A stretch of DNA of 47,708 nucleotides, filler included, from Jimgerdemannia flammicorona (Eukaryota), in NCBI GenBank assembly GCA_003990765.1. It is 2 parts of 2 records of this genome, joined end to end, with 100 filler letters (N's around TTAATTAATTAA, not from the genome) between each part and the next. Parts side by side here need not be neighbours in the genome. Positions count along the whole stretch, not along the records: positions 23,906 to 47,708 come from RBNJ01001063.1; 1 more part is not named here. The stretch is one strand, 5' to 3'. Shown in pieces: positions 3,061-47,708 of the stretch (the stretch's first letter is position 1; each line of letters opens with the position of its first letter). The notes beneath the pieces are model-generated. The model did not search any database. It was given only the letters and a program-made list of their open reading frames with translations, and had not been told where the DNA came from. A program made the position numbers and the translations under genes.

Positions 3061-3067
3061 ACAGAAC

Positions 3068-3901
3068 TTAGAGCAGAAAGTTCAGGACCATAGGAGCTTC
3101 ATCCTTGTCATCATCATTACTGAAGGAGATGAGATCTACGAATTTGTCATTTTCATGTGCTTTGTTATGTATCTCACATATGTCCATGTCATGCAGGATG
3201 ATATCATCACTAATGATGTCATCATGTTCAGCTGTGGCAGGAAAATCGGGAATAAGATCTGGAGCTCTCTAGTCTATGAGGTTCTCTTCCACAAAATAGG
3301 GAACAAATGTGGGGTCTTGGGGAGGTCTAACCTGGATGCTTGGGCCTTGGAATACTGAGATCAATCCTTGTAGGAATTGGTCTGGATTGTCCTGAAGGAT
3401 AGGGTACCAGAAGTTTTCTACTTCTTCACTATTGAGAGTAATAGTGGACTGGGCTTCTGTAGCCACCCTGGCTTCTAGTGCATTGATATGGCAGGATGAT
3501 AGGTCTCTGAAGTCTGAGACTCTAACATACTCCAAGTTGGGGATTGACCATGGTGCATGCCTGAAGATCTGATGGATCTTCTTAGCTGTCCTTGTTTCAC
3601 ATATATCCATAGGAGTGGCATCTTATAGCTCTTGAGTACTGGCTTGTGGGAACTTCCGGCAGAGGAGGTTTCCTATTTCATACTCCTACCACATTTAGAG
3701 GTATTCAGTAGCAATAGTGATCCTTGTTTCCATTTCACGGTGATAGAGAAGGAAGTGATAAGGGTCTGCAGTACCCAGGTTGACACTAGGAGTCCTTCTT
3801 GAGCAGGTCCTCATGGCTCTTCTGATGTCTTGGAACATCCTTTCCTCAACCAAGATACCTTGGTGATTCCTTGACCTTGAGGTTTGGAGGGCAGCAGACA
3901 T
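3068..3901 (-). pseudogene. LTR-encoded accessory ORF-X (277 codons, in-frame stops only)
   Basis: ORFs 3695-3901 and 3269-3610 share one frame through to TAA at 3068-3070. The stops are CAA/CAG/TGG transitions and differ between copies. Confidence 0.8.
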
Positions 3902-4333: not shown

Positions 4334-7300
4334 ATGGTCTCTGCAGAAGATATATAATAGCTTCAAGAACAAATAGTACAGTTGATATAGACCTATCAAG
4401 AGGTATAAGCAAAGATATAAATAATAGAGACAGCATTAGATTCTAAAGGTAAAAAACTAATAGTAGACCCCTCTATTAAAAATAAGAAGAACAATAGAAT
4501 AAGTGGTAATATTGAAACTTGGCTCTTTAATCTGAATTAGTACCTAGCAATAATAAAAGTATCAAATAAGGAGTTAGTTGCTTATAAAGGAGTACTACTG
4601 TAAGAAGATATAGCTATTTGATAGAAAACAAAAGTCTAAATAGCCAGATATAAAGAGAAAGACCTCCCAGACTGAGATAAGTTTCAAGATTAACTTATAT
4701 GGCAGATTAAGCCCATTAACTCAAAAAAGATAGCCAGAGACAAGTTGATATCTCTGTAATAAATAAGATCAGTCAAGATTTATACTACTATCTTCATGAG
4801 TATAGCCTTAGAGATTGATAATAATAGTAAAGCTGAAAAACTTAATAGATATATAAGAACTCAAGGATCATACTAGATAAGAAGTAGAACTATAAGATCT
4901 AAACACTATTGAAAAAGTAATATTAATTACTGACTATTTTTATATAATCTCTTTTGGAAGAAATTATTTCTCTAAATAACCTAAAAAGCCCTAACAAGGA
5001 TATATATATCTCAAAAATATTGTAGGTTCCACCCTAATAGATCTGAATACTATAACTAAATTAAGACTTATACTAGAGAAAAGGGAAAAATTATATAAAA
5101 GTAAAATCTACTTCTACTACTAAGAAGAAGGACATATTACTACAAAATGTCTAAAGAAGATCAAGAACAAAATAGAAAAAAGAAGGCCCTGATAATTACT
5201 AAGAAGAAAATAGTAATACCTATTACACAAATTGAAGAAATATATCTAATAGTTCAAAAACTACATCCTGATGCTATTTTACTAGAAGCAAAAACCTCAG
5301 AAGTAATTAAGTTAGATCTAGTGGTTATTCAAGATACAACAATCTCTGCAGAATAGTGACAACTCATAGTCACCAGGCTAGCAATATAGATACTTAAAGG
5401 ATATTATAGAAAAATTATATCATAATCAGATCCTAGTACTAAACATTACATTGACCTAGATATAGGGGTAATAGATCCAGACTATTGTGGAGAAATTAAA
5501 GCACTTCTGATCAATAATAGTATACAATTCTTCAAAATCAAGAAGTAAGATCAGGTTGTACAACTAATCCTAGAATAAGCCAAAGTATTAACAATTAAGG
5601 AAGTTATAACTCTAAAAGAAACTGCTTAGACTACTAAAGGATTTAGAAATACTGGAAGTAAATTGCTATAAAGGAAGAAAATATCTACAAAACTGCCTTC
5701 TAAATTTGCTATGGATATTTTGAGTTTCTGGTTATATCTTTTGGCTTAACTAATACTCCTGCAACCTTCTAGATACTGATGAATACTATCTTATACCTAT
5801 ATCTAGACAAATTTATTATTGTCTACATTGATGACATTCTAGTCTTCAGCAAAACCCTAGAAGAATATCTCAAATATCTTAAACTAGTACTACTGAAACT
5901 CTGAGAAAACTGACTCTTTATGAAACTCAGCAAATGTGAATTTCTCCTAAAGGAAATTTAATTCTTTAGATATATTATCACTCTCAATAGAATCAAAGTA
6001 GACCCCAGCAAAATCTCTGCAATCAAGGAATAACTCAGACTCAAGAAGTTGAAGGATCTCCAGTTATTCCTAAGACTAGCAAACTATTACTAGTGATTTT
6101 TTACCAACTTCACTAAGATTACTACTGCCCTTATCTATATAACTAAGTACAGTAAGAGAGAAGAATAGTCCTGGATCACAAAACAAGAAAAAGACTTCAA
6201 CAATCTTATAAATTGAGAACCTAAATAAGATATAACCTTTCAAGTACTGAAAGATATCTTGATAACCACTCTAGTACTTCAAGTGATAAATTCTGTCCTC
6301 TTATATAAAGTTACTACTGATGCCTCTGATCTAGCTCTTGGAGCAGTGCTCATATAAGAAGAATACTCTGTGCCCTATTATTCTTGTAAGTTCAATGATG
6401 CCAAAATTAATTATATAACCCATAAAAAGAAAATATTAGCCATTATAGACACTCTGATTAAATAGCAACCATACCTCAAAGAAGTATATTTCACTATTTT
6501 AACAGATCATAAATTATTAGTCAACATCAAGACCCAGACCACTTTTTCCTAAAAGTAAGCCAGATAGATGAAAGTTTTCACTAATTTTGACTATGAAATC
6601 TAGTATCACTCTGGTAAGGAGAATATTATTACTAATATAATTTCTAGACCACTAATTGAAGAGGTTATCCAAACTCTCACCTTGGTTACCAACTCTATTA
6701 TAGAACAGATTATTACAGTATATACTGATGATAAAAAAGCCCAAGTACTCTGAAAAATTCTGAATAGTAATTATATTGACAAGTCTCCTGGTATTATCAA
6801 TACCAACTAAAGGACAATACTATCTACTACAAGAACAGATTGTATATTTCTAACAATTGAGATCTCCAAAGAACTATCCTATTCAAATATCATGATGCTC
6901 CTATAGCCAGATATTTAGGATTTGACAAATGCTATAAAGTTATTTCCCAAAACTTTTATTGGCCTCATATAGTAGATCAGCTAAAGATCTATATCACTTT
7001 CTGTAATATCTGCCAATATAATAAGTCTTCAATAATAGCAAAACCTAGTCTACTCCACTCTATCCCAGTACCATCTACTAATTGAGAATAAATCTTTATA
7101 GACTATCTCAGCAAACAGACTCATTTTGTACTAACTACTATCACTGCTATAGTACTAGACATAGCTATATAATATCTTCTACTATTATGGTCTTCCTAAG
7201 ATCATTATTAGTGACTGAGATCCAAAGTTCATCAACCACTTTTAGAAAGCTCTATATGTATACTTTGGAACAAAACTTATACTATCTATAGCTATTTACT

Positions 7301-8060
7301 CTAAAACTGATAGTCAAATTAAAAGAATAAACTAAACTCTAGAATAAATATTAAAGAACTATGTTTCCTATAGATAAGATGATTGATATAGACATCTTAC
7401 TGCAGTCAAGTTTATCTATAATAATAGTAAACAAGTCTCTCTGAGAATGACTCCATTCTTTATTAATATAGGACAAAATTCAAACACCCCTCTAATACTT
7501 ATTGGAATCACTAATGAATCCTCTACTACCAAAGTTATTGAAGAATTCCTGCTCTGAATACATAACTTAAGTCAGATTGCAATTAAGAATTTATCTTGAG
7601 CTCAAGAACAATAGTTATAGTATATCAATCAGCATTACTAAGGAGAAACTTTTGATATTAGAGAAAAAGTCCAAGAATATTAAGTTAACAACCTCAAGTA
7701 CAGACTATCTATAAAACTAAACAGTAATTTTATTGGACTATTTGAAGTCATTGCACAAGTCTCTCTAACTTTCTACAAATTGATACTATCAGATACTATT
7801 AATATTCACCCAGTCTTCAATGTCTAATATCTTAAGTAATAAAATGAAAATAATGATAAGTTATTTCTAAACCAAATCATAAAACCACCTGTACCTATCA
7901 TTATTAATAATCAAGAAGAATATGAAGTTGAACAAATCCTCAACAAATATAGCTATAAGAACTATCCAAAATATCTTATTGAATAGAAAGGTTATCTGAT
8001 CTATAATATAATATAAAAATCCAAAACTAACCTCTAGAATGTCATTGATCTAGTTTAAGA
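4334..8060 (+). pseudogene. pol: Decayed gag-pol of element E
   Basis: Knuckle remnant EEGHITTKC (~5125); dUTPase KLHPDAIL, DPDYCGEI and KGFRNTG (5250-5657); RT KTAF, FGLTN and VYIDDILVFS (5821); RH VTTDASD (6310); IN HDAPIA (6891); chromodomain EEYEVEQILN..YLIE*KGY (7915-7995). Confidence 0.85.
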
Positions 8061-8524: not shown

Positions 8525-10204
8525 TGTAAGTGCACAACCTCCAAGTTATCAAAATTACATATCACTCTTAGAATAAATCTAGAAATCAAATGCAAGATCA
8601 TGAAGCTGAGTCAAACTGAAGTCACAGAGTATAAAGCTGAGTCAACTTGAAGTTATGGAATATGAGATTTATATTAATGAAATCTTACTAATCAGGACTA
8701 AATACATATATACTAAGTACTCAGATATATTAAAATAGAGAACTATAACAAATTAAACAAATAATCATAACTCTTAAATATATATATAAACATGACTACT
8801 AAGATCTATAACTACATCTATGCTGACATTTGAAATACTATTGTCAACTGAGTCACACCTCTCCTACTCCTCATAAATATATATAGTCTGGCACCTCTTT
8901 ACTTCATAGAAGTCTAATGAAATACCCTGAACATACTTAGTGAAGGTTATCAAATTGGACAAATCTCAAGCTACTATCAGATCAGATATCTCCTAGAAGA
9001 TATGGTTGAACACTATTATGATACAGACATTATCCAGATGTCTCAACACTAGAAGCTCATTGCTTACAAATACTGAGAACTCTTTTATAAATATAGCACC
9101 TTTATTTACTACCTCTGAATTACTATCACTGAAATGTTTACCACTCTGTCCTATGACCAAATTGACAATATGATATAAGAACTCAATTACAAATATATTG
9201 AGTATACTCAAACTATAGACAGAACCTTCCTATATCCTAATGACTACATTCTGCAAATACTTCAAGTTGGATATACTATAAAGGATATCTATGATATAAT
9301 CCAGTTCAATAATAATAAAGCAGAAGATAACAATTCCTCTAACACTAATATGACCTTCAGCTAAGAATCTCTATCAGTCCTGATTACTCTACCAATCTTG
9401 CTGATGAACTTATAATAGTTTATAACTACCTATAAGACCTATTGAGATAATGACTACTAGTATGAGTATTAATCTACATTTATACCTGACTACTTCAACT
9501 ATAATAAAGAGACCAGAGAATACAATCTATATCTCTAGACCATCCTTGAGATTGAACTAACAACTCCATCACCCAAGTATAAGTGATACATATAAAGAAT
9601 AGCTGCCAGCTTACTACAACTCAGCAATACATAGTGCTATAACCTATAGAAGATATATAGATAGTGAATCTGATGAAAGCAAAGATGATGCACCTTTTCT
9701 TTGCCCATCAACTCCATACCTTACATATGAGATAGATGATGCTATCCTGTGAGATGATAATATAGTCTTAATGTATTATTGCCTGAGTAAATAGAGAGAA
9801 GTAATCCAAGAACTACTCTTTCTAGATAACTACTTTATTAGAGATAATATTATTAATGATGATGTCATCAAAGACTATTCAGATAGTATCTAAATTTATA
9901 AATAGCTTAGCAGTCATTAGTATAGTTAGATTAGCCTTATACAATATAACTATATACTGACTCAGCAGTCAGACAATCTCTTGATATATTAGTTCACACT
10001 TATACTATATAATTGTATTCTGACTCAGTAAAATACTAAGTATTATATCTATATTTAGTATAATATAGATAGTCTTCCATTAGTATAAATATCCTCTTCT
10101 CCAGATCTCAGAAACTTAGACTTGAACAGATCTATATATAAGAACTCTTGAATACTTCCCCACAATATCTCTTCACATACTACTCCTAGTATAGCAATAT
10201 TATA
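8525..10204 (+). repeat. Probable long 3' LTR of element E
   Basis: Begins TGT after the PPT and ends at a decayed TATTATA like the 5' remnant end at 4272. Similarity to the 4144-4272 remnant is weak. Confidence 0.4.
8792..9893 (+). pseudogene. Decayed ORF-X homologue downstream of the element E PPT
   Basis: Translation through transition stops: MTTKIYNYIYADI(R)NTI...SYYQIRYLLE...QMSQH(Q)KLIAYKY(R)ELFYKYSTFIYYL(R)ITITEMFTTLSYDQIDNM. After an indel it has an acidic tail ending DNIINDDVIKDYSDSI*. Confidence 0.6.
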
Positions 10205-11981: not shown

Positions 11982-13479
11982 TATAATGGTGACCCCAGAA
12001 TGATGACATCAGTATAGGAGACAGCCTTTTCTTGCAAGTCACCAGATCAGAGCACAAGAAGATTATACAGCATACAAGATGAGCAATGATGACCAACTGT
12101 GAGTCATTGCGACCACAATATAAGCATCCTGAAGAATATAAAAGAAGGATCAAGAAACTGCAGTAGCAGCAACCAACAAGACCCACCAATCCCAAAATAG
12201 CTCAAAGACTTACCACAAATGAAATGCCTCCACTTGCCAAACCTCAAGGTCAAGGAACCACCAAGGTACCTCAGTTGAAGAAAGGATGTTCCAAGACATC
12301 AGGAGAGCTATGAGGACCCACTCAAGAAGGACTCCTAGTGTTGACCTGGGTACTGCAGATCCCTATCATTATATTCTCTACTGTCATGAAATGGAAACAA
12401 GGATCACTATTACTACTGAATGCCTCCAAATATGGCAGGAGTATGAAATAGGAAACCTCCTCTGCCGGGAGTTCCCATAGGCCAGCCCTCAAGAGCTACA
12501 AGATCCCACTTCCATGGATATATACAAGACAAGAACAGCTAAGAAGATCCATCAGATCTTCAGGCATACACCATGGTCAATGCCCAACTTGGAGTATGTT
12601 AGAGTCTCAGATTTTAGAGACCTGTCATCCCACCATATCAATGCACTTGAAGCCAGAGTAGCTATAGAAGCCCAGTCCACTATCACCCTCAACAGTGATG
12701 AAGTAGAAGACTTCTGGCATCCCATCCTTTAGGACAACCCAGATTGGTATTCTAAGGCCCAAGCATCCAGATTAGACCTCCCCAAGACCCCATATTTGTT
12801 CCTTATTTTGTGGAAGAGAACCTCATAGATTAGAGAGCCTCCAATTTTCCCACCGAACGTGATGACATCATTGGTAATGACATCATCCCATGTGACATCG
12901 AAGCATGTGAAATGACGAATTCATGGACCTTATCTCCTTTGAAGATATCCTGACCTCTGATGACAAGGATGAAGCCCTCATGGTCCTGAACTTTCTGCTC
13001 TAAGTTCTTTATTATACTGAATAATACCAGTACCAGTATTTTGATGTAACACTGGATAATGCCAGTACTGGCATTCTAAGGTGATGCAAAATTATTCCAG
13101 CACTGATATTCTGATGTGATACTGAATTATACCAGCATCCTGAACCTGTACAACCATCAGTGCTGACCCTAGAACTTAGTAGTTTTAGTTATTGGAATTT
13201 ATATTTAGCTTTATATCTTAGCAACCATTGAATTATATTTTGTATAAATATTCCTCTTATTTTCTCTGAAATAAAGTCAGTTCCAGTTCACTTACATACA
13301 CTTCCTTGCAAGTAATCTAAGAGATAACAAGATAGTTAAAGATAAGAAGTTTGAGGACTATAAGACCTTGGGAAGGTACTCTAATAAGAACTTACTTATA
13401 ACAAACTTGAGTTAGTCTAAGAGATACACCTTAAAGAGAATCTGGTATATTTGAAGGACTTAGTGATCACTACATAACA
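11982..13479 (+). repeat. 5' LTR of copy B
   Basis: TATAATGG (decayed TGTAACGG)...TACATAACA; matches 18925-20446. Confidence 0.93.
12224..13003 (+). pseudogene. ORF-X in 5' LTR of copy B
   Basis: ORFs 12286-12480 and 12514-12732; small indels. Confidence 0.75.
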
Positions 13480-18597: not shown

Positions 18598-18924
18598 TCC
18601 ATGAATCGTAACAGCATGTCCTATGACCAGCAGGCTATCTGTCTGGACCATTCTCTAAGAGATATAGTATTGGCAACTACTCATCCATGAGACTTTTGAA
18701 GTCAGAGGAGTTCAAACTGTCAACTGATTGGTCAAGATCAGAATCAGGCCCTTGCTCTATATAAAGGGAGCAACCCTTCACCATCATGCCAAAATACAAA
18801 GGGAAGACACCAGTTCATAAACACCACTTTTCGACCCCTTGCCAGAGATTATGGGATCAGCAAATTTTTCAGGACTGGACCAATAAATAAGGATGCTCAA
18901 GAAGATTCTTATTCAGAAGGAAGA

Positions 18925-20446
18925 TGTAACAGTGACCCCAGAATGATGACATCAGTACAGGAGACAGCCTTTCCTTATAAGCCACCAGATTGGAGTACAA
19001 GGATATCATACAGCATATAAGATGAGCAATGATGACCAACTGTGAGTCATTGCAACCACAGTACAAGCATCCTGAAGAATATAAAAGAAGGATCAAGGAA
19101 CTGCAGTAGCAGCAACCAACAAGACCCACCAATCCCAAAATAGCTCAAAGACTTACCACAAATGAAATACCTGCTGCTTGCCAAACCTCAAGGTCAAGAA
19201 ACCACCAAGGTACCTCAGTTGAAGAAAGGATATTCCAAGACATCAGGAGAGCTATGAGGACCTGCTCAAGAAGGACTCCTAGTGTTGACCTAGGTATTGC
19301 AGATTCTTATCATTATATCCTCTACTGCTATGAAATAGAAACAAGAATCACCATTGCTACCAAATGTCTCCAAATGTGGCAGGAGTACAAAATAGGAAAC
19401 CTTCTCTGCCAGGAGTTCCTACAGGCTAGCCCTCAAGAGCTACAAGATGCCACTCTCATGGATATATGCAAGACAAGAATGGCTAAGAAGATCCATCAGA
19501 TCTTCAGGCATGCACTATAGTTGATCTTTAACTTAAAGTATATTAGAGTCTCAGATTTCAGAGATCTATTATCCTGCCATATCAATGCACTAGAAGCCAG
19601 GGTGGCTATAGAAGCCCAGTCCACTATCACCCTCAACAGCAATGAAGTAGAAGACTTCTGGCATCCCATCCTTCAGGATAACCCAGACCAATTCCTACAA
19701 GGATTGATCTCAGTATTCTAAGGCCCAAGTATTCAGGTTAGACCTCCCTAAGACTCCACATTTGTTCCTTATTTTGTGGAAAAGAACCTCATAGATTGGA
19801 GAGCCCCTGATTTCCCTGCTGAACATGATGATGTCATCAGCGATGATGTCATCCTGCATAACATCGAAGCACATAAAAATGATAAATTCATGGACCTCAT
19901 TTCCTTCAAAGATATCCTGACCTCTGATGATGAGGATGAAGCCCCTATGGTCCTGAACTTTCTGCTCTAAGTTCTTTGTTACACTGAATAATGCCAGCAC
20001 CAGTATTTTGATATAACACTGGATAATGCCAGCACTGGTATTCTGAGGTGATGCAAAATTATTCCAGCACCAGTATTCTGATGTGACACTGAATTATACC
20101 AGTATTCTGAACCTGTACAACCATCAGTGCTGACCCTGGAACTTAGTAGTTTTAGTTATTGGAATTTATATTTAGCTTTATATCTTAGCAACCATTGAAT
20201 TATATTTTGTATAAATATCTCTCTTATTTTCTCTGAAATAAAGTCAGTTCCAGTTCACTTACACATACTTCCTTGCAAGCAATCTAAGAGATAACAAGAT
20301 AGTTAAAGATAAGAAGTTTGAGGACTATAAGACCTTAGGAAGGTACTCCAATAAGAACTTGCTTATAACAAACTTGAGTTAGTCTAAGAGATATACCTTG
20401 AAGAGAATCTGGTATATTTGAAGGACTCAGTGACCACTACATGACA
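18925..20446 (+). repeat. 3' LTR of copy B
   Basis: TGTAACAG...ACATGACA after the PPT. Confidence 0.95.
19167..19970 (+). pseudogene. ORF-X in 3' LTR of copy B (267 codons, no indels)
   Basis: ORFs 19254-19520, 19521-19721 and 19776-19970 are all in one frame. Confidence 0.8.
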
Positions 20447-25468: not shown

Positions 25469-27604
25469 TGTAACAGTGACCCCAGAATGATAACATCAGC
25501 ACAGGAGACAGTCTTTCCTTGCAAGTTACCAGATTAGAGTATAAAAAGATTATATAGTATACAAGATGAGCAATAATGACCAACTGTGAGTCATTATGAC
25601 TACAGTATAATATCTTGAGGAATATAAAAGAAGGATCAAAGAACCACAATAGCAGCAACCAACAAGACTTACTAATCTCAAAATACATAGCTCAAAGACT
25701 TACTATAAACAAAATGCCTGCTGCTTGCCAAACCTCAAGGTCAAGGAACTACTAAGGTATCTCAGTTGAAGAAAGGATGTTCCAAGACATCAGAAGATGA
25801 GAATCTACTCAAGAAGGACTCCTAGTATTAACCAGGGTACTAGTGACCCTTATCACTATATCCTCTACTACCATGAAATGGAAACAAGAATCACCATTGC
25901 TACCAAATGTCTCCAAATGTGGCAGAAGTATGAAATAGGAAACCTCTTCTGTTGGGAGTTTCTACAGGCCAGCACTCAAGAGCTACAAGATATGAACCAC
26001 CTTCATAGATATATGTGAAATAAGAACAGTTAAGAAGATCCATCAGATCTTCAGATATGTACCATAATCAATCTCCAACTTGGAGTATGTTAGAGTCTCA
26101 GATTTCAGAAACCTGTCATCCTGCCATATCAATGCACTAGAAGCCAGGGTGACTACAGAAGCCCAGTCCACTATCACTCTCAATAGTGATGAAGTAGAAG
26201 ACTTTTGATATTCCATCCTTCAGAATAACTCAGACCAATTTCTATAAGGATTGATCTCAGTATTCCAAGGTCCAAGTATCCAGGTTAGACCCCTATAAGA
26301 TCCCACATTTGTCTCTTATTTTGTGGAAGAGAATCTCATAGATTGGAGAGCCCCTGACCTCCCCACCACTGAACATAATGATATCATTGGCAATGATATC
26401 ATCCTATGCAATATCAAAGCATGCGAAATGCATAAAGATAAATTCACAGACCTCATCTCTTTCAAAGACATCCTGACCTCTGATGATGAAGATAAAGCCC
26501 CCATGATCCTGAACATTCTGCTCTAAGTTTCTTGTTATACTGGATAATACCAACACTGGTATTCTGAGATACATAACACTGGATAGTACTCCAAATGAGT
26601 CAATCCAGATAGGATTCGGATGGATTCAAATTCCATCTGGATCAACTCAAATTGGATTCAAATCCCATCTGGATCAACTCAGATTGGATTCGAATCCCAT
26701 CTGGATGGATTCGAATCAACCATTGTTTTGATTTCCAAATTGGACAATTAAATGTTTACATCAATAACTCGATGAATAATCATCTAAATTTGATGATCTT
26801 GGTGTCATTTGAAAGCCCTTAATAAGGTCTTTCTAATGATATCAAGAACATTAACATCGGATTACGTGTTGCTGAGATATTAAGGAAAACAATCTATTTG
26901 ACGAAATTTCCAAAATCGGCGATTCAGACAGTTTCCTTCATAACTCAGCAACGCATGATCCGATTTAAATATTCTTAATATTATTAGATAGGCCTTATTA
27001 AGGGCTTTCAAATGACATCAAGATCATCAAATTTGGATGATTATTCATTGAGTTATTGATGTAAACATTTAATTATCTAATTTGGAAATCAAAACAATGG
27101 TTGATTTGAATCCATCCAGATGGGATTCAATCCAAATCAATCCGAATCCAATCTGGATTAAATTGACTCATTAGGAGCACTAATACTGGATAATGCCAGT
27201 ACTGGTATTCTGATGTAATACTGAATTATACCAGCATTCTGAACCTGTACAACTATTAGTGCCGACTCTGGAACTTAGTAGTTTTTCCTGACCTGGTATT
27301 TTATTTTAATTATTGGAATTTATATTTAGCTTTATATCTTAGCAACCATTGAATTATATTTTATATAAACACTCCTCTTATTTCCTCTGAAATAAAGTCA
27401 GTTCCTCTCAGTACAATATATACACTTCCTTATAAGTAATCTAAGAGATAACAAGATAGTTTAAAGATAAGAAGTTTGAGGACTATAAGATCTTAGGAAG
27501 GCACTTCAATAAGAACTTGCTTATAACAAACTTGAGTTAGTCTAAGAGATATACTTTGAAGAGAATCTGGCATATTTGAAGAACTCAGCAACCACTATGT
27601 AACA
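25469..27604 (+). repeat. 5' LTR of copy C (contains ORF-X 25714-26526 and a MITE insertion)
   Basis: TGTAACAG...ATGTAACA followed by a decayed PBS. Confidence 0.92.
26584..27182. mobile_element. hAT-type MITE, 599 bp, almost wholly palindromic
   Basis: TIRs TAGTACTCCAAATGAGTCAAT / ATTGACTCATTAGGAGCACTA; 8-bp TSD ACACTGGA (26576-26583) / ATACTGGA (27183-27190); absent from the other four family 1 LTRs. Confidence 0.85.
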
Positions 27605-31428: not shown

Positions 31429-32514
31429 ATGCTTGAGAATATTCTTATTTAGGAGGAAGATGTAACAGTGACCCCAGAATGATAATATTAGCACAAGAGA
31501 CAGCCTTTCCTTGCAAGCCACCAGATTAGAGCACAAGAAGATTATATGGTATATAAAATGAATAATGATGACTAACTGTGAGTCATCATGACCATAGTAT
31601 AGTATCTTGAGGAATATAAAAGAAGGATCAAGGAACTGCAGTAGTAGTAACTAACAAGACCCACTAATCCCAAAATAGCTCAAAGACTTACCACAAATAA
31701 AATATCTGCTGCTCACCAAACCTCAAGGTCAAGGAACCACTAAGGTATCTCAGTTGAAGAAAGAATGTTCCAAGACATCAGAAGAGCCATGAGGACCTGC
31801 TCAAGAAGGACTCCTAGTGTCAACCTGGATACTAGTGACCCTTATCACTATATTCTCTACTGCTGTAAAATGGCAACAAGGATCACCATTGCTACTGAAT
31901 ACCTCTAAATGTGACAGGAGTACAAAATAGGAAACCTCCTCTGCCAGGAGTTCCCACAGGCCAGTACTTAAGAGCTACAAGATACCACCTCTATGGATAT
32001 ATATGAAATGAGAACAGCTAAGAAGATCCATCAGATCTTCAGGCATATATCATGGTTGATCCCCAACTTGGAGTATGTTAGAGTCTCAGATTTTAGAGAC
32101 CTGTCATCCTACTGTATCAATATACTAGAAGCCAGAGTGACTACAGAAGCTCAGTCCACTATCACTCTCAATAGTGATGAAGTAGAAGACTTCTAGCATC
32201 CTATCCTTCAGAACAATCCAGACCAATTTCTGCAAGGATTGATCTCAGTATTCCAAGACCCAAGCATCTAGGTTAGACTCCTACAAGATCCCACATTTGT
32301 CCCTTATTTTGTGAAAGAGAACCTTATAGATTGAAGAGCCCCCAACCTCCCCACCACTAAACATAATGACATTATTGGTGATGACATCATCCTGTACAAC
32401 ATTGAAGTATACAAAATGCATAAAGATGAATTTATGAACCTCATCTCCTTTGAAGACATCCTGATCTCTGATGATGAGGATGAAGTCTCCATGATCTTGA
32501 ATATTCTGCTCTAA
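31429..32514 (+). pseudogene. ORF-X of copy C, reading from an ATG upstream of the PPT into the 3' LTR (361 codons)
   Basis: Single frame from ATG 31429 through the PPT and LTR start to TAA 32512-32514; only transition-type stops. Confidence 0.65.
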
Positions 32515-32946: not shown

Positions 32947-33051
32947 AAATATAGAGAATACTAAGCTAATTTACTAAAAGATAAGATCAATTCTATCAAT
33001 ATACTGAAGATAGCTCAGAGAGAAGATCAAGTAGATAGAGAAAGCTGATAT

Positions 33052-33113
<62 letters not shown>

Positions 33114-34337
33114 ATTAATTTATAGTTATTACTAATATACTAGTCTTAAAGAAAGAAAGTAAGTTATTCAAAACTCTATATATATTATAAAAAACTCAAT
33201 AAAATAACCAAAAAGAGCCAATAGTCCTTATCATTAGCAATATCTTAGTTATACTAGAAAATAAAGCTTAATACTATATTATCTTAAATCTCTACTTAGA
33301 ATTCTATCAAATCAGACTTATTAAAGAAATTAGTAAAAGATCAATTTTTAATATCTTAATAAAATCTATATTTATCTATAAATACTATTCAGAATATATA
33401 AATAAACTTAAGAAAATTTATACTAAATAAACTATATAATTGTGAGTCTATAATATAACTATTATACTACTTAAGATTAACTAATATCAATATAAATACT
33501 TTCTTATAAATACTCTAAAGAATATATATCTAGTAAAAATAATATAAATAAGAAGCTTTACTATAGGATTATTACTTATCTGAGATAGTATAAGATATCT
33601 CAAAATCTGAAAAAAATAAATATAAATAATTATTAATAAAACTTAGAAATAATGAAGAAATATTTAAGAAAGAAAAACTACTAGTTATATCTAAATATAA
33701 AAAAGAATAAGAAATAAAGTCAGTATAGAGAAACTTGCTAAGAAGTTTACTGAAATAACTCTCTCTCTAAGAGATATAGTGAAGAAAATCAGAAGAAGAG
33801 ATTGTTGCCTAGTTCAGAAGTTTGCTACTACTATAAACAAAAAGAAAGAAATCTGCTATACTTGTGGAGAAGAAGGCCACTACTTCTATGAATGTATAAG
33901 TGAGACTAAGTATAAGACTCAGTTAAATAATGTTATTAAAAACTACAAACAGATCAATACTATTATCTTTGAAGAGATTGGAGATTCAGAGAAAGAGAAA
34001 TAATAAGAAGCTTATCTAGCCCTCATCTCTAAGAAAAATATCAATTAGAAATTCTATAAGAGGCCATTAGAAAGATCCAAGAAGAAAGTAGTAGAATATT
34101 CTATAGAAGAACAGATAGAAGTATCTATAGAAATTAAAGAAATAGATCAAGATATAGAACTTAAACAAGTAGTTGAAGATATCATCTGAGGCAATACTTT
34201 TGCTAGTAAAGGAGAAAAGGAGAAGAAGCTGTAAAATAGTAAGACCTTCAAGTATATGTAATATCTTCAAGAATCTCAGCCAGCAAAAAGTCAATGCAGC
34301 CTTTGGATAGTTAACAGAAATCTCTATCTTTAGATAG
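32947..34337 (+). pseudogene. Very AT-rich relics of a family-2-like element: RT N-terminus (to ~33400), RH/IN junction (33400-33715), gag C-terminus (33720-34337)
   Basis: Colinear with the corresponding parts of D; CYTCGEEGHYFYEC knuckle in ORF 33779-34003. Confidence 0.75.
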
Positions 34338-34813
34338 TGTGACGGTACAGCCAGATTTGGAAGAAGAAAATAGGGAATAGACACTTGATCGCACTCATTC
34401 CCAAAGTAGTATAGCATTATAGTTAGCAGTCCTCGATTTCGACATTGTCTAAATTCTTAGACATTGTCTAAATTTTAGACATTATCCAAATCAGATACCC
34501 CGATTTAGTATAGCATTTAGACATTGTCCAAATGTTTTGACAAAGTCCAAATGACTCATTTATTACTTAGCCACCCTCTCATAGCTAGCAAACTTGTATA
34601 AATAACCCAGTATCTTCGAGTGAATAAACCTCAGATTGAAATAGTTCAAAGCAAAGAGATAGCAAAGGAACTAGTAAGTCTGTGGGCAGATACACTTCAA
34701 ACTCACCCACCCTCCCCTGCCACTTCAAGAGACTCTGCGAGAGTCAGAACAGTCAAGTTTTCAAGATACAGAAATCTGACGTACTTTCAAGAGTAAGTGT
34801 CTGCTATGTTACA
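34338..34813 (+). repeat. 5' LTR of D
   Basis: TGTGACGG...ATGTTACA; matches 40595-41070. Confidence 0.96.
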
Positions 34814-34927: not shown

Positions 34928-37900
34928 ATGGATATGAGACTGCCAGTATTCCATGGATATACCTCAGATGAATTGATCATCACCTTCATTGATGATTTCG
35001 AGCAGTATGCTGCCGTAAGGACTCTGACAGCAGCACAGCAAGTAGCCCTCATGCCCTTCAGCCTATGAGGCCCTGCCAGAGCAGCATTCACAGCCGCAAC
35101 CTATGCAGGAAATGATGCTGATGCCATACTGATGGCATAGAAGATCTGGCTCTGAAACACATATTACACAGACGAGATCAAGCAAGCCCTGAAGGATCAG
35201 CTCAATACAACATGCCAAGGAATGAGCAAGGATCCAAACACATTCTATACCAGAATTCGATATCAGATAATCCTTGCAGATTATGCTGCTGCTACCCGAG
35301 ATCAAGTAGCTAAAGCAACCTTCATGAAAGGAGTCTATCCAGAAATAGCCATGGCTATCTGCTCATCACCAGTGATTCTAGATCTGCTACAGAGGGTCAC
35401 CTATGCTCAGCGATACTGGATAGCCAGACACCCACAAGACCATATAATGGAGAGAGTTACAGGAGTCAGAATCGAGGCACCCAAGGCAACCAGTGTGATC
35501 TCCACCACAATGATCAATCGAAACACACCTCAGCCAAAAGCTACCAAGCAGCAAAAGAACAGCAACCCTATGGAGGAACTTGCCAAAAGGTTTGCTGAAA
35601 TGACTGCCCACCTGGGAGATGTGGTAAAGGAAATCTGAGGAAGAGATCGCCACCCTGTTCAGAAGTTTACCGCCACCTCAGACAAGAAGAAAGGTACCTG
35701 CTACAGCTGCGGAGAAGAAGGCCACTACTCCTATGAATGTATGAGTGAAACCAAATGCAAGGCTCAACCAAGCAATGCTACATGAAACAAGGAGCAGGCC
35801 AATATAATTACCTTTGAGGAGATCGGAGATTCTGACGAAGAAGAATGGGAGGCCTATCCTGCTCAGACCACCAAGAAGGATGTTCACAAAGAACCCTACA
35901 AGAGACCGCCAGGAAGACCCAAGAAGAACCCAGTGGAAAAGCAGATGGAAACTGCCACAGAAAGTCAAGCCGAAGAGATGGACCAGGATATCGAGCTGGA
36001 GCAAGTAGTTCAAGATATCATCTGAGGAACCACTCCAGCCAGTAAAGGAGAAAAAGGAAAGAAGCTTTGCAAGACCAAGACCTTCAAGTATGATATCTTC
36101 AAGGATCTCAGTCAACAAAAGGTCAATACAACCTTTGGTCAGCTTGCAGAAATCCCAACATTCAGACAGCAAATGAGGTTTGGACTAGCCGAAATAACCA
36201 AGGAACAAGGATGGAAGATAACCGAGGCCAATAATGTTCAAGAGGACTCAGGAGAAGAAAGTGAGGACAATCGCAAAACCTCTGCTTATGCAACATACCA
36301 AATTGAGGATTGAGTCTTCGAGGCCATCATTGATACAGGAGCAGGAGGATGTCTCCTCAGTAAGAAAGCAGCAGACCGCCTAGGCTGGGATGTGGAAGAA
36401 GCAACTAAGCTAGTATTCGTCACAGCCGATGGCACAAGAGCCACACCTCTGGGAAAGATCTGAGATGTTCCCATCAAGATCAGAGGAGCAACAATCCCAG
36501 TGGATGTAATCATAACCAATGCCACCAACTATGACATCCTCATCGGCAATCAATGGCTTCACAAAGCCAAAGCGGTAATTGATCTTAATGCCCAGAAGAT
36601 GCAAATCACCTACAGGGGACAGAAGATACGAATTCCCATCAACGTCAACAAAGGAGTCCTGCCCGATATGGAGGAAGAAGAGAGCGAGCAAGAGGAAGCT
36701 TATATGGTGACTACCACAAAGAAGAAGAAAGTTGGATGGATGAGTGAAGAAGAATGGTGCAAGAAGATCGCAGAAGGCTACACCCCACAAGGAGTCTGTC
36801 CTCATGGAATCAAGATGTACTATATGGAGCATATCAATGATTGCTACCAGTGCACCATCGGAACCAGGAAGATCTACCAGGAAAGAAGCCAGAAAGCTCT
36901 CAAAAAACAGACCATGGAAGAAGAGAAGGAGGAAGATGATGAACCACCAGCCCTCCTAGAGGGCAGTGATGATGAAGAAGAAATCAAGGTCAAGATTTGA
37001 AAGATCCACCCTGACGCAGTCTTGCCAGAATACAAGTCAGAAAATACAGCCAGAATGGACATCACTACAGTAGAAGAAACTGTACTCGAACCCCAGACAA
37101 CCACCCTACTCGCAACTGGACTGGAGATGACCATCCCAAAGGATCATGTCGGGATTCTCAAGACAAGAAGCAGCCTAGCTAGAAGCGAAATCACAATTGA
37201 AGGAGGAGTCATTGATTCAGACTATACTGGAGAAATTCTACTCATTGCTAGGAACCACAATCCTACAATTCCATTCCCAGTCAAGAAGAAGGACCGATTG
37301 GCACAGATATTGATCTTCCCAATCATACAGCCAAGGATCATAGAAGTCAAGAATCTGGAGGAAACGAAAAGAGGAAAGAAAGGATTCGGATCCACAGGAA
37401 GAGGAGTATTCGCCAGCACCAAGATCACTGAACTCAAGCATAAGAAGGAGGAAAACACAAGCAAGCACAGTTACACAATTGGAGATGAATTCCCACTCAA
37501 GGAGGAACTCAAGAAAATACTCCACAAATTCAAGGATGTCCTTGCCACGGATTTCAAGGATATCAAGAGAAAGACCCCACACTACTATCACGAAGTAGAT
37601 ACTGGAGACACCAAACCAATTTATCAGAAAGCAAGACCTGTCCCACCAGCCTACCAAGAATGGCTCAGAGAAGAAATCAAACAGATGGAAGAAGCCGGTA
37701 TCATCAAAGAAGCCAGCAGCCCCTGGTCTTCACCAGTTGTACTAGCCCCGAAAAAAGGAAGCAAACCTGGAAAATTTGCCCCAAGACTCTGTGTCAACTA
37801 CAGAAAGCTCAATGCAGTCACCAAGAAGGATCGCCAACCACTGCCGCTCATCAGTGACATCCTTATAACACTAGGAGACGAAGCACAGTACTACAGCACC

Positions 37901-38920
37901 TTGGACTTATACTCAGGATTCCACCAAATCGGACTCACAGAAGTGGCAAGTGAAAAGTCAGCCTTCATCACCCCAGACGGAACCTACATCTACCTATGAA
38001 TGCCATTCGGAATGTGCAATGCACCAGCAAGCTTTCAGTGAATGATGAACAAAATCTTCTGCTATGACATGGGAAGATGGATGATGGTCTATGTCGATGA
38101 TGTAATCATCTACAGCAAGACGGCTGAGGAACATCTGCAGCACATACAGCAGATAATGGAGAGACTAAGACAACATGGCCTTTATATCAAACCCAAGAAG
38201 TGCAAGTTTGCGGAAATCGATATCTCCTATCTTGGCCATATCATCAATCGAGATGGAACACATACAGACCCCCTCAAGATACAAGTAGTGGCAGCATACC
38301 CAAGGCCCACTACTGTCACAGAAGCCCAAGCCTTCATGGGACTTGCCTCCTACTATCGCAGATTCATTAGAGGATTCTCCAACATTGCAGGTCCAATCTA
38401 CGAACTCAACAAAAAGGATACCAAGTTCCAGTGGACCGGCAGATAACAAAAAGCATTTGACGAACTCAAGGTCAGACTAACTCAGGCACCCATCCTCAGA
38501 TGACCCAATTGGACCCAAGAATTTATCCTTCAGACGGATGCAAGTGCACAAGGACTAGGAGCTGTCCTGGCTCAAAAAGAAGACAAAAAAGAGTATATTA
38601 TTGCATATCTTAGCCGTGAAACCCAAGGAGCTGAAAAAGAATATGAGTCCTACAAGTTGGAATGCCTTGCAGTCATCTGGGCTGTGGAAAAGTTCCACTA
38701 CTATCTGGCCGGAAGACACTTCACCATCCAGATGGACCACTCAGCTCTCACCTGGCTACTGACAACCAGACAACCCAAAGGAATCTATGCCAGATGGATA
38801 ATGAAGTTACAAGCCTATGATGTAACCATCATGCACCACCCTGGAAGAACAAATTCCAATGCAGATGCTCTCTCACGGACACCTCGAACTACCTCCAACC
38901 AACAAATCAATCATGAATAA
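34928..38920 (+). pseudogene. pol: gag-PR-Cys/His domain-dUTPase-RT-RNase H single-frame polyprotein with nonsense mutations
   Basis: ORFs 35222, 36500, 37022, 38042 and 38657 share one frame; CYSCGEEGHYSYEC, IIDTGA, dUTPase motifs RSSLA, GGVIDSDYTGEI, DRLAQ, RGKKGFGSTG; YVDD; QTDAS; NADALSR. Confidence 0.96.
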
Positions 38921-40103
38921 GGAGCTCTACTACGGAATTATCACATATCTGGGACAGTGAAAGATGCCCCAACATCTGGAAGAATGGACACAAACGATTA
39001 TCAACAGGACATGGAAACAATTTGAAACCGACAGAGAAACACTGAAGAAAGGAAAACTACTAGTCATACCAGAACACAAGAAGGAGCAAGCAATGAAATT
39101 GGTACACGAACTTGGCCATCTAGGAGGAACAAATACATATGACAAGGCAAGGAGAACAATATGGTGGCCAGGGATAGAGGAAGATATCAGACAATTCGTC
39201 AAGACCTGTGACAAATGCCAGAAACAGAAACAAGACCAACGAAATCAAGCCCCAGGATCAGCACACATAGAACCAGTACCATTTGCCCACATTGCAATAG
39301 ATGTAATCAGCCCCCTACCCTTGACTCTGACTGGCAACCGATACATCATTGTCATCGTAGACCTTTTTACGAAATGGATAGAAGCAGGACCCCTTATGGA
39401 AGCCAATGCATAGTCAATCACTGATTTCTTCCACAAGGAAATCATCTGCCGGTTCAAGACCCCAACACAAGTAACTACAGATAGAGGAACCGAATTCGTG
39501 AACCAGTTCTTCGAGGTTCTCTACAAGAAGTACAAGATCCAGCACATTCAGACCACAGCCTATCACCTTCAAGGAAATGGACAAGAAGAAAGGACCAATA
39601 AGACCCTCAAGAATGTTATCACCAAGATCTGTGATAACTACGAGAACTGAGATCACTATCTGCTAATAGCACTATCTGCTCTCTGGGATATCCGATCACA
39701 AAGCACCCACTTTACCCCTCGAGAAATGCTGTTCAGAGAAGAATGTTCTCAAGGAACCCTATCATCCAATGGAGATACTGTATGGAAACATATGGACATG
39801 GAAATACGGAGACTACACCAAATCAGGAAGAAGGCTGAGGATTACATAATGAAGGCGCAGACACTACAACGGAGGAATGCGGAAAAGACCCACAAACCCT
39901 TGGAGATCATCAAGATAGGAGACAAAGTTCTGGTGTATCGGAATATGGTTGAAGCTTCATGGTCACGAAAACTGGAGCCCAAGTGGGAAGGACCTTACCT
40001 TGTGCAAGATATAAAAGGGACCACCTTTTGGCTATGAAAACCCTCAGGCACAATAATCCCCACTACCATTCACCAAAACCAACTCAAGAAATATCATAGC
40101 TAG
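38913..40103 (+). pseudogene. int: Integrase as a separate ORF (HHCC, DDE, GPY/F; no chromodomain)
   Basis: ATG 38913 MNKELYYGII; HELGH..CDKC; IAIDV; TDRGTEF; GQEERTN; KWEGPY. The true stop may be 40103 or 40139. Confidence 0.92.
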
Positions 40104-40119
40104 TAACAAAAGTACCGCG

Positions 40120-40557
40120 ATGGCACTCAAGATCACTAGTGCTGCCCAAAGAGCCATTGAAAGACAATGGCACACCACCGAGCCTCCGACCATAGAGCCA
40201 TTCTATGAGGATATTCAGAGTATTGTGCAGACTCATCTCTCTCGGATCTCATGCTTTAGAGACTATCAATATCGCGCAGAATTCCAAGAGTACTTCAAGC
40301 TTGGACAGGTGCTCAATCAGGATCCATCAAAGACCAAGGAAGACTGGATTGCCGAGTGTCAACTCTCTCACTCACAGATCACTATTGCTAAAAGGATCCA
40401 CAAGTTATTCCGAGAAGATGAAGCAGCGATAGACCACCTTAGAGGAGTAACCCCTACCGACTTCGAGAAAGTGAGGAGACATCATTGGGAAACAGTTATG
40501 CAGCAAATCGCACATTACAAGACCATACAGACCATTGAAGCCTGGGAGTTTGAATAG
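40120..40557 (+). CDS. Intact 145-aa accessory protein ORF-X between integrase and PPT; function unknown
   Basis: ATG-to-TAG ORF without stops; aligns by eye with the LTR ORFs of family 1 and element E. Confidence 0.8.
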   Translation: MALKITSAAQRAIERQWHTTEPPTIEPFYEDIQSIVQTHLSRISCFRDYQYRAEFQEYFKLGQVLNQDPSKTKEDWIAECQLSHSQITIAKRIHKLFREDEAAIDHLRGVTPTDFEKVRRHHWETVMQQIAHYKTIQTIEAWEFE

Positions 40558-40594
40558 ATGCCTCAGAGACAAGACCATCTATTCAGGAGAAAGT

Positions 40595-41070
40595 TGTGAC
40601 AGTACAGCCAGATTTGGAAGAAGGAAATAGGGAATAGACACTTGATCGCACCCATTCCCAAAGTAGTATAGCATTATAGTTAGCAGTCCTCGATTTTGAC
40701 ATTGTCTAATTTCTTGGACATTGTCTAAATTTTAGACATTATCCAAATCGAATACTCCGATTCAGTACAGCATTTAGACATTGTCCAAATGTTTCGACAA
40801 AGTCCAAATGACTCATTTATTACTTAGCCACCCTCTCATAGCTAGCAAAACTTGTATAAATAACCCAGTATCTTCGAGTGAATAAACCTCAGATCGAAAT
40901 AGTTCAAAGCAAAGAGATAGCAAAGGAACTAGTAAGCCTGCGGGCAGATATACTTCGAACTCACCCACCCTCCCCTGCCACTTCAAGAGACTCTGCGAGA
41001 GTCAGAACAGTCAAGTTTCAAGATACAGAAATCCAATGTACTTTCAAGAGTAAGCGTCCGCTATGTTACA
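40595..41070 (+). repeat. 3' LTR of D
   Basis: TGTGACAG...ATGTTACA. Confidence 0.96.
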
Positions 41071-44497: not shown

Positions 44498-44699
44498 AGA
44501 AAGCTATTAAAGTATATCTATTTTATCACTCTCATTAAATTCAAGATAAGAATTCAGATGAATTTATAAGTATAATTATAGATATGTTTATAATATCTAC
44601 AATCTTTATAATATTTATATTTAATTAAAGTTATTAAATTATATTACAGAATGACAACTTAGATAACTTTATAAATACTGATTCTAAAGATAAGAACTT

Positions 44700-45205
44700 A
44701 TTATACTATTCAAGTTCATCACATCATTCAAGTCAATTATATCATTCAAGTCCATCATACTATTCTAATCTATCATACTATTTAAGTCTATTATAGCACT
44801 GTTAAGTCTATCATAGTTGTATTATTTAAGTTTACTATATTATTCAAGTTTACTATATTGTTCAAGTTCACAGTATTATTTAAGTCTACCAAATAATTTA
44901 AGTCTACTGAATCATTTAAGTCTACCTTATTACCTAAGTCCATCATATCATTTAAGTCTACTACATCATCTAAGTCTATTATATTGTATAAGTCTACTGC
45001 ATCATTCAAATCCAACTCATCATTCAGATCTACTATATTATTCAAGTCTAATGCACCATTCAAGTCTATTATATCATTTAAGTCTATTGTAGTCATACAA
45101 TTCATATTCATCATATTATTCAAGTTCACTATATCATTTAAGTTTACTATATTGTTCAAGTTTATTGCAATCATATCATTCAAGTTTACTATATTATTTA
45201 TATTT
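44700..45205 (-). repeat. 18-bp tandem array encoding (D/N)LN(D/N)xV hexapeptide repeats
   Basis: Plus-strand unit TTCAAGTCTACTATATCA-like; ORF 44791-45183 on minus strand. Confidence 0.8.
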
Positions 45206-46513
45206 ACTTAGTCTAGACTAACCAGAGATATTGTAGAACTCCAGAAAGCCTCAGTAATGAATACCAATCTTATCAAGTTCTTCAGGACCTCTGATATCTG
45301 AAAAAATTGAAATGATATAGAGAAGATTAGTATGGCCCTTGTACAAAGATGACACTATCTTCCTGAGATGAATTATAAATATCAATCTTGTAACAAAGTA
45401 AGCTTAATTTTCTGATACATTTCTAGTACTTCAGTATATAATATAATATATATATATCTGATATTTATGTTAATATTTACTGTTATATTTCATTATTTAT
45501 AGATCAACTATATAGTTAATAATTGGTATCAAGACATATTAGAGAAATATCAAAGCTAATACAATACTTGCAGGATGATACTCTATAGAAGCAGATTGTA
45601 TAACAAATTCACAACTTTATCTTCTTGGAAAATATATGGCCAAATGTTAGCATGCAGAAAACCTTTATATTTTTAATATCTCATAATAGTGATAAAAGTG
45701 ATCTGACTTCTATAGTAAGTATATTTCAGCAGAGTTTGGACTTATTTATAATCTCAATTAAACATAGTCCCAACAAATAAATATGATTTTTTTTCTTTCT
45801 TTCTTTCACTATAAATTAAAGTTAAGAAACATTGTATCTACTTATTGAGCATAGTATTTACTAATAAATCTTCAGTTTCCAAACACTATATCTCTCAAAG
45901 ATATGAAAGATCTTAAACAGAGGATATTACAGCCTCTTGTCCAAATGTCTGATTCATTTATATACTACTAATATATAATCTGAATGAAGAAGGAGATATT
46001 AGACATGATGAGAATAGATATTTGATTATTCTGACACCTGTACAGCAACCTTCTACTCTCTATATATTATTTCAGTTTTTTAGTTATTGTGGTTTGGAGA
46101 AAAGCCTCAATTTAAGAATATGCTATTAAATATTATAGTACTCTAGCTTTTATTTATCTGTAGTCTAGTGAGTTATTTTTATTTTATTTTATTTTTTAAT
46201 TATATATTAGATATTAATTTTATTATATATATATATATAGTTGAATTATCTATGCACTGATGGACTAATAAATAAGTTTGAAGATAGAATGGAATTATCT
46301 CAGTATTATAAGTAGATTAGACAAATTCAAAATATGGTCAATAAGAAAAAATTGAATTCTACAGCTCTACAGAAGTATGTAGTTACAGTATCTGGAATAA
46401 ATTCAAGAATCAATAACACTCCTGATAAGAATTTGAAACCAGACATTACAGATACTCTAGAAAACTAGTATCCCTTTCTCTACTACCTTACTAGTCACAA
46501 TGGTTTGATAGGC

Positions 46514-47430: not shown

Positions 47431-47708
47431 CTAAATGAGCAAGACAGAAGGCACTAATAGGGGTAGGTCAGATGCACTAGATGCCAAGTACTTGAGGTAG
47501 TTGGGGCTCACAACCCATACCCACTAGGTGGGGCAAGCTGGGTAGAAGGATCTAGTTACTTGAGCAGTGAGGTCACAACTCACACTCTAAAGATGCAAAG
47601 CTGAGTGAGTGTAAAGGTAGGTTGAGATTGGGGTGGAATGGGGCTACTGATGTAGTATGAGGACATGTGATATATTATAGATAGTTAATAAAAAATAAAA
47701 ATAAAAAA

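Follow-up and report, generated by a model that had tools for sequence, protein, structure and literature searches.

Additional open reading frames (aORFs) in retrotransposons with long terminal repeats (LTRs) are an established class in plants, according to PMC7264820. In Cer1 of C. elegans, the CERV protein is encoded at the env position and is required for the export of genomic RNA (PMC10309623). It has 517 residues, and its spliced mRNA consists of five exons, some of them in common with gag; its function was shown experimentally, and the article states that it has no homologues outside nematodes (PMC10309623). In bdelloid rotifers, ORF3 types are common to diverse retroelements, three lineages of which have dUTPase, as stated in PMC5408684. 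The gene described here, ORF-X, lies in a stretch of 47,708 nucleotides of DNA from Jimgerdemannia flammicorona (assembly GCA_003990765.1; hereafter the window), which consists of nested LTR retrotransposons. ORF-X is found after the pol gene of a Ty3/Gypsy element, D, and inside the LTRs of a second group, Family 1, and a decayed frame of the same kind is probably present in a third element, E.

Genes in or overlapping the U3 region of the LTR are familiar from retroviruses, namely sag of mouse mammary tumour virus (MMTV), whose product is a membrane glycoprotein, and nef of the primate lentiviruses. ORF-X of Family 1 is similarly placed, in that the polypurine tract precedes it and the LTR promoter follows it, and it is duplicated with the LTR. 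The retroviral genes belong to viruses of mammals; unlike Sag, ORF-X has no membrane segment, and Pfam gives it no relation to these genes. Word searches of the open-access literature returned no case of a retrotransposon gene inside U3, which is weak evidence of absence.

Sense aORFs are extra frames on the sense strand after pol, present in most copies of a family and without known domain, and ORF-X resembles them in each respect. In D the gene is located in the interval from the pol stop to the LTR (40595), likewise in L001, a related metagenome contig, and in Family 1 it is inside the LTR. Besides D, L001 and all five Family 1 LTR copies, contigs of four public sequencing runs contain it and 15 database proteins represent it. 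It is constrained: pN/pS is 0.26 in its own frame, and the two shifted frames give 1.15 and 1.72. The comparison with the plant aORFs is one of position, copy distribution and constraint; the host of ORF-X appears fungal-like, and the Family 1 gene is within the LTR. The likeness to CERV is that of a non-env protein at the env position of a Gypsy element, restricted to a narrow host group and diverging as fast as gag, with a regulatory role for the RNA of its element that in ORF-X would be putative. Any such likeness would be one of role and not of sequence. ORF-X has 145–342 residues against 517. With the rotifer ORF3, ORF-X shares the occurrence of one accessory type in distant LTR-element lineages carrying dUTPase; on the other hand, the ORF3 products are a recognisable GDSL esterase, DEDDy exonuclease and fusion glycoprotein, and ORF-X matches no family. 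Among the non-env accessory proteins known from LTR retrotransposons, hardly any has an understood function; in the literature consulted, CERV was the one found.

ORF-X is very probably a real gene under purifying selection, accessory to Ty3/Gypsy elements. On balance we favour the fuller statement that it is a selected accessory gene of a dUTPase-carrying Ty3/Gypsy group, the product of which would act in trans.

Coding evidence for ORF-X

Element D contains the following features.

40096..40557, plus strand: ORF-X of element D; ancestral start at 40096–40098, ATG chosen in an earlier note at 40120, stop at 40555–40557
40580..40603, plus strand: polypurine tract and first bases of the 3′ LTR (common 24-base motif, from a pattern search)
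40595..41070, plus strand: 3′ LTR, with TATAAATA near 40853, then AATAAA
35156..40103, plus strand: decayed gag-pol (gag, protease, dUTPase, reverse transcriptase, RNase H, integrase)
34338..34813, plus strand: 5′ LTR (TG...CA), 91–97% identical to 40595–41070 in three collinear blocks

ORF-X is flanked by the pol stop (40101) on one side and by the polypurine tract and LTR start (40580–40603) on the other, and comprises 145 codons from the ATG at 40120 to 40557, or 166 codons from stop to stop. Nearly all DNA contigs of the four public runs have G at 40098 and, at 40101, C. The first of these bases indicates that other copies start with ATG at 40096–40098, where the window copy reads ATA, and the second that the pol of other copies is one codon longer, ending at TAA. 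In the D lineage (D and L001) the ancestral start overlaps the end of pol and ORF-X ends about 40 bases before the polypurine tract. The start context in L001 is ACCATGG, and 7 of 10 D-type database proteins (nine word-index matches and P0012) begin at the ancestral start. The sole joint in the contigs of the four runs over the D region is a 61-base back-step in the LTR.

The contig L001, the one obtained in the metagenome scan, is a near-intact relative of D with a 1265-codon frame from gag to RNase H, an integrase and ORF-X (4974–5432 of the contig), which shares 67% amino-acid identity with that of D. The two genes align without gaps over 144 codons, with 34, 24 and 79 differences at codon positions 1, 2 and 3. 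The proportions of nonsynonymous (pN) and synonymous (pS) differences are 0.203 and 0.773, from which the ratio of 0.26 derives, and the two shifted frames contain 4–9 stops. A ratio near 1, which the earlier note had taken as a sign against a gene, was not observed. For gag the values are 0.17–0.18 and 0.76–0.84, and for protease 0.21 and 0.67; integrase, with pN of 0.08, is more constrained, and ORF-X evolves at a rate like that of gag.

This arrangement in D could also be read as an addition to the C-terminus of Pol, entered through a +1 frameshift where integrase ends, and the ORF-X frame, which is +1 to pol, is indeed open for 45–82 bases before the pol stop in D and L001. Nevertheless, L001, 7 of the 10 D-type proteins and the contigs of the four runs all retain the start codon, and the Family 1 gene lies about 670 bases past pol and beyond the polypurine tract, where a fusion is impossible. 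The extension is therefore very improbable, and ORF-X is best treated as a separate gene.

Family 1 has LTRs of about 1.5 kb (11989–13479, 18926–20446, about 25469–26585 and onward, about 31461–32950, and 2934–4144 on the minus strand), which flank two internal regions, elements A and B. The ORF-X frames in these repeats, and the landmarks at the 3′ LTR of element A, are listed below.

19167..19970, plus strand: ORF-X in the 3′ LTR of element A; start decayed to ATA, three internal stops, ending NFLL-stop
12223..13030, plus strand: ORF-X in the 5′ LTR of element A, with two deletions of 22 bases each
25700..26526, plus strand: ORF-X in the 5′ LTR of element B, with one insertion and one deletion, each of 4 bases
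31702..32514, plus strand: ORF-X in the 3′ LTR of element B; 24-base motif at 31446–31469
3068..3901, minus strand: ORF-X frame seen in the minus-strand LTR copy (2934–4144)
18926..20446, plus strand: 3′ LTR of element A, with TATAAATA near 20209 and AATAAA near 20238
18910..18933, plus strand: polypurine tract and LTR start of element A (24-base motif, from a pattern search)

The frame is present in five of five LTR copies, with about 270–290 codons and NFLL or NILL before the stop, and the statement of the earlier note that the Family 1 frame is inside the LTR is borne out by this gene in U3. It occupies approximately LTR positions 240–1045, with the TATA box near position 1284. Being within U3, the gene is duplicated in both LTRs and retained in solo LTRs, and it is also found in one LTR copy of the window without an adjoining internal region. 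The copy in the 3′ LTR of element A is 74–79% identical to the intact database proteins P0010, P0011, P0015 and P0016. Three copies keep the frame, and they differ internally in length at five places, by 9, 15, 15, 18 and 21 bases. The changes that break the frame, of 4 and 22 bases, are each private to single copies (two copies). Third codon positions present an excess of differences, such as 21/18/43, in all six pairs that were compared among four of the five copies.

In the databases, a profile search gave 15 proteins at E ≤0.01 among 1070 candidates. The intact proteins of Family 1 type include P0015 (247 residues), P0016 (271) and P0018 (342; 39% identical to P0016), and P0017 was also found. 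For the D type, a word-index search gave nine proteins at 63–81% identity among 12 candidates, and the full HMMER scan of 1.84 billion representatives gave only five proteins at E ≤0.001, including the distant P0014 (165 residues, E 2.6e-5), relatives of which were absent from a viral contig scan. The relatives are annotated only as hypothetical protein and come from metagenomes, and the elements are abundant in organisms of soil metagenomes. Without a profile, an ORF-X frame is called a host gene or missed in annotation.

The core motif of the D profile (positions 97–131) also matched P0013, a protein of 455 residues with about six 68-residue repeats, in six stretches (E 8e-7). P0013 was set aside unexplained and was not used, kinship in the core motif and a chance match of the repeats being indistinguishable.

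Several observations weigh against a coding role. The window copy of D has lost the ancestral start codon, and its open frame alone is not significant, about 1.2 stops being expected at the stop density of gag-pol; the intact frame of D was for this reason rejected as evidence of a gene. All five Family 1 copies of the window hold point stops or frameshifts. The two LTRs of one Family 1 element present the same third-position excess (18/14/30), and the pairs are non-independent; this signal is confounded and is given little weight. The selection test is a single DNA pair, D and L001, with saturated synonymous sites, which makes the ratio rough. The non-significance of the open frame of D and the damaged Family 1 copies would suit a chance open frame in fast-evolving non-coding DNA between pol and the LTR promoter. 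On the other hand, the codon-position pattern together with the ratio of 0.26 already largely refutes that explanation, which is also at odds with the length differences in multiples of three and with intact frames of 145–342 codons, at 39–81% identity, in independent contigs; we find it scarcely credible. ORF-X is neither a chance frame nor an env.

Relationships of the elements and of their ORF-X frames

Over 3032 bases of pol, D is 71.5% identical to Family 1 in DNA, and the proteins of the two from gag to integrase are 47–70% identical. A 24-base motif at the polypurine tract and LTR start, TATTCAGRAGRAAGWTGTRACAGT, is identical in both (three matches in the window, none expected from 100 shuffles) and is also present in L001. 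The promoter layout looks similar as well, with TGTATAAATA followed about 25 bases later by AATAAA. Comparison of the LTR bodies gave no significant similarity (best E 0.30), nor did that of the Family 1 stretch from integrase to polypurine tract with the ORF-X region of D (best E 0.071). Judged from these alignments, D and Family 1 are sister families in which only the LTR bodies cannot be aligned. The view in the earlier note that the underlying DNA and LTRs are unrelated, applied to D and Family 1, stands for the LTR bodies and fails for the pol DNA and the 24-base motif.

In the genomic RNA, ORF-X is always 3′ of pol and 5′ of the TATA and poly(A) region of the LTR, and D and Family 1 agree in the order of pol, ORF-X and LTR promoter region. 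The homologous 24-base motif, however, is downstream of ORF-X in D and L001 and upstream of it in Family 1. With the gene on opposite sides of the polypurine tract, ORF-X must have been repositioned at least once. The difference in LTR length, 1.04 kb (1.5 kb versus 476 bases), is approximately that of ORF-X plus flanks. The gene thus occurs naturally in two layouts, one ahead of the polypurine tract and one within U3, which make the expression and the role of a third gene testable.

All three elements carry a dUTPase. In L001 the domain (E 2.9e-28, residues 632–759) lies between protease and RVT_1, and that of Family 1 is 54–63% identical to the D piece. In Pfam searches the D pol gave dUTPase PF00692 (1.2e-26), RVT_1, RT_RNaseH (9.5e-37), Integrase_H2C2 (3e-19) and rve.

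Element E extends over about 4150–9400, with 28% G+C and many stops, and no LTR pair was detectable for it in the window. Its two features are as follows.

8816..9190, plus strand: decayed ORF-X-like frame, about 830 bases past the chromodomain-like end, with many stops, on the strand of pol
5258..7986, plus strand: pol remnants (dUTPase-like, reverse transcriptase, RNase H, integrase zinc finger, chromodomain-like end)

In tblastn, the dUTPase, reverse transcriptase and RNase H pieces of E are 32.9%, 29.8% and 31.9% identical to those of D, and the integrase gave no match to D at E ≤0.01. Its zinc finger is recognised by Pfam (Integrase_H2C2, 6.1e-14). The integrase ends in HPVFNV and then EEYEVEQILNK...KYLIE(stop)KGY, which, in the translation read through stops, looks chromodomain-like by eye against the consensus of that domain; Pfam gave no chromodomain match on the 47-residue stop-free piece. 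The assignment of E to a different clade, made in the earlier note, agrees with the identities of 30–33% to D and with an apparent chromodomain-type end seen by eye. The dUTPase-like stretch (5258–5686; 32.9% over 146 residues) precedes the reverse transcriptase, the N-terminal half of which seems to be missing between 5686 and 5776.

The ORF-X proteins share a core consisting of (E/W)(F/Q)(Q/E)(E)Y..(L/I)G..L, then, about 25–30 residues on, (T)IAK(R/K)IH(K/Q)(L/I)F(R), and about 15 residues further (V/I)..DF..(V/L/I). The peptide strings quoted in the earlier note as evidence of this likeness are all present in the window, the frame of E being read at 8816–9139 on the plus strand. Alignment of the D group (A1, 10 sequences) with the Family 1 group (A4, 10 sequences) in hhalign gave a probability of 72% and P 3.3e-5 over 106 collinear columns. 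P0014 aligned with A1 at 96.6% (P 6.2e-10) and weakly with Family 1 (P 0.018).

A hidden Markov model (HMM) of the combined family gave the E frame 14.7 bits (E 7.6e-4 in 948 six-frame windows), directly after the true copies, and the next unrelated window reached 6.3 bits. In block shuffles of the 7.8-kb E region, none of 200 attained 14.5 bits, the highest being 9.9. The profile of D and Family 1 without P0014 gave E 14.8 bits, and single groups gave −0.1, 4.3 and 7.0 bits; such scoring by a mixed profile and poor scoring by single groups is the behaviour of a remote homologue. Smith-Waterman scores of E were matched by shuffles in 114 of 500 cases against D, 245 of 500 against P0001, 141 of 500 against P0016 and 6 of 500 against P0018; against P0014, the score was reached in none of 500 and then none of 3000 shuffles.

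The homology has weak points, which we set against it here. The link between the ORF-X of D and that of Family 1 has an hhalign probability of only 72%, and a thinner Family 1 alignment against the D group gave 49% (P 1.8e-4). The D-only HMM missed the E frame, and hhalign of E with the D or the Family 1 alignment alone gave P of about 0.5. The best pairwise score of E is 50 (with P0014), and two unrelated windows scored 46 among 186 AT-rich control windows. Even so, the similarity among D, Family 1 and E exceeds chance as estimated from these profiles and shuffles, and E likely carries a decayed ORF-X homologue. The three-protein similarity proposed in the earlier note is in this way upheld (A1 with A4 at P 3.3e-5; E at 14.5–14.8 bits, 0 of 200 shuffles). 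The profile-profile comparison it called for was significant for D with Family 1 and not for E with either alignment alone.

The earlier note proposed a mobile, probably nucleic-acid-binding module, perhaps a transactivator or silencing suppressor, in three different Gypsy lineages, which would mean horizontal spread among unrelated elements. Such spread would fit the probable presence of ORF-X in the chromodomain-type E as well as in the non-chromodomain D and Family 1, its rearrangement at least once about the polypurine tract, and the sharing of ORF3 types among diverse rotifer retroelements (PMC5408684). However, D and Family 1 being sisters (71.5% in DNA, 47–70% in protein), descent accounts for two of these three cases, and the lineages number two instead of three. 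A dUTPase before reverse transcriptase in all three fits common ancestry as well as exchange; for the ORF-X of E, descent from a common dUTPase-bearing ancestor would be as good an explanation as exchange. The mobility of the module is accordingly no longer called for by the comparison, and the proposed binding of nucleic acids finds no support in proteins that are acidic (pI 4.5–6.8), not basic, and have no assignable fold. We consider the horizontal module unlikely and prefer an accessory gene of one dUTPase-carrying group.

Protein properties and proposed working

ORF-X proteins of the D type have 145–153 residues, P0014 has 165, and the proteins of Family 1 type have 247–342. The isoelectric point (pI) is 5.7–6.8 for the short forms and 4.5–4.9 for the long forms and P0014, with about 4.0–4.3 for the Family 1 tail. 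The C-terminal ends are acidic and contain leucine or aromatic residues: the D group has EAWEFE, P0014 has ...DDSQLWLELDEGNNEAELDE (W and L), and Family 1 has DLISF...DEEDEAP.VLNFLL. Ends of this kind are typical of acidic activation or protein-docking motifs.

No membrane segment or signal was found in seven proteins, the highest 19-residue Kyte-Doolittle means being 0.18–0.74, and the absence of a hydrophobic segment asserted in the earlier note is confirmed by these values. Pfam at E ≤0.1 assigned no family to six of seven ORF-X sequences, and for P0014 gave only a below-threshold TBK1_ULD (E 0.018); the earlier description of an unrecognised accessory family agrees with this. For the foamy virus Tas/Bet and VANDAL VANC proteins, to which the earlier note compared ORF-X in role, the sequence comparison consisted of this Pfam search. 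Word searches of the open-access literature returned no description of the family and no fungal intra-LTR gene. A search of PDB sequences with profile A3 gave a best E of 0.56, and the ESM Atlas returned only unnamed bacterial and phage clusters at 0.92–0.95, with no usable lead. On these searches, ORF-X is to be regarded as an undescribed family within the established class of additional ORFs of retrotransposons.

The shared part is predicted to be all-helical in AlphaFold2 models, at low confidence. Foldseek of the D model against PDB gave a best E of 1.5 with probability ≤0.25. Helix-turn-helix regulators among the weak Foldseek rows were given no weight at such scores.

A structural or assembly helper, gag-like or a degenerate remnant of env and carried in the particle, would be consistent with the gag-like pace of evolution and with a position that is that of env in retroviruses and errantiviruses (PMC7264820). 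Against such a helper stand the lack of a membrane segment and the absence of any Pfam gag, capsid or env match in ORF-X at E ≤0.1. In addition, no zinc knuckle is visible, and the elements already have a complete gag with zf-CCHC. We judge it improbable and retain a soluble accessory factor as the favoured product.

The product may be a soluble, helical and acidic protein that regulates the element in trans or serves it as an adaptor, whether by activating transcription, handling RNA or countering host silencing. In role, and not in sequence, it would resemble Cer1 CERV or retroviral regulatory proteins. This function is suggested tentatively, and we hold it slightly less likely than not. Two facts count against it: the reading of the acidic tails consists of motifs picked out visually and likened to activation domains in general, and the AlphaFold2 models are both poor (D ORF-X, 18 sequences, pLDDT 49.8; P0016, 24 sequences, pLDDT 52.6), so that no fold backs any function.

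ORF-X would probably be expressed from a spliced or internally started sub-genomic mRNA. At a distance of about 670 bases from pol in Family 1, its translation cannot in general be coupled to the termination of pol. In Family 1, a conserved TATAAAAG is present some 90 bases upstream of the start codon, and ORF-X could be driven by it from every LTR. At this distance upstream of the start, GAATATAAAAGAAGGATCAA is invariant in the five LTR copies, with a mean column identity of 89%; other invariant runs of 16–18 bases exist in the Family 1 LTRs, and GAATATAAAAGAAGGATCAA therefore only hints at a separate promoter. A bolder proposal is that the Family 1 LTR is a self-contained cassette, with its own TATA and the LTR poly(A), which would express ORF-X from solo LTRs too and supply a trans-acting regulator like Rev, CERV or Tas, or an anti-silencing factor, to the whole family, the module having been exchanged between chromodomain and non-chromodomain lineages with or alongside dUTPase. 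We think this combination quite unlikely. If solo LTRs do express the gene, the view of LTR remnants would change.

Decay, repeats and other features of the window

The LTRs of D have 476 bases each and are 94.6% identical (484 bases compared). The gag-pol of D contains 14 premature in-frame stops in 1636 codons and one frame change near 38920–38961. TGA accounts for 11 of the 14 stops, 8 of these 11 being opposite arginine in L001, and the TAA and TAG stops are mostly opposite glutamine. The richness in TGA opposite arginine indicates C-to-T decay at CpG, which is consistent with methylation-driven mutation of the elements.

An older gag fragment at 33724–34322, 71% identical to the D gag at 35569–36154, directly precedes the 5′ LTR of D, and D thus seems to have been inserted into or beside an older relative. 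The LTRs of element A (11989–13479 and 18932–20446) are 88.8% identical, no closer than LTRs between elements (81–89%), so that this unit is either very old or an inter-element recombinant.

Repeated units are found in the LTRs of each group. The D LTR has repeated GACATTGTCCAAAT-like units at 40695–40800, and the L001 LTR opens with at least four copies of a tandem 18-base unit, GCAGATGTAGAGATCTTA (5575–5658 of the contig). In Family 1, about three imperfect direct repeats with AATGCCAGCACCAGTATT lie at 19975–20110, between the ORF-X stop and the TATA box, and are possibly enhancer-like.

Finally, the regions 46457–47467 and 44686–45182 present a minisatellite of about 1 kb with a 9-base period, the minus-strand open frames of which are rich in Cys, Pro and Leu, and a separate array with an 18-base period.

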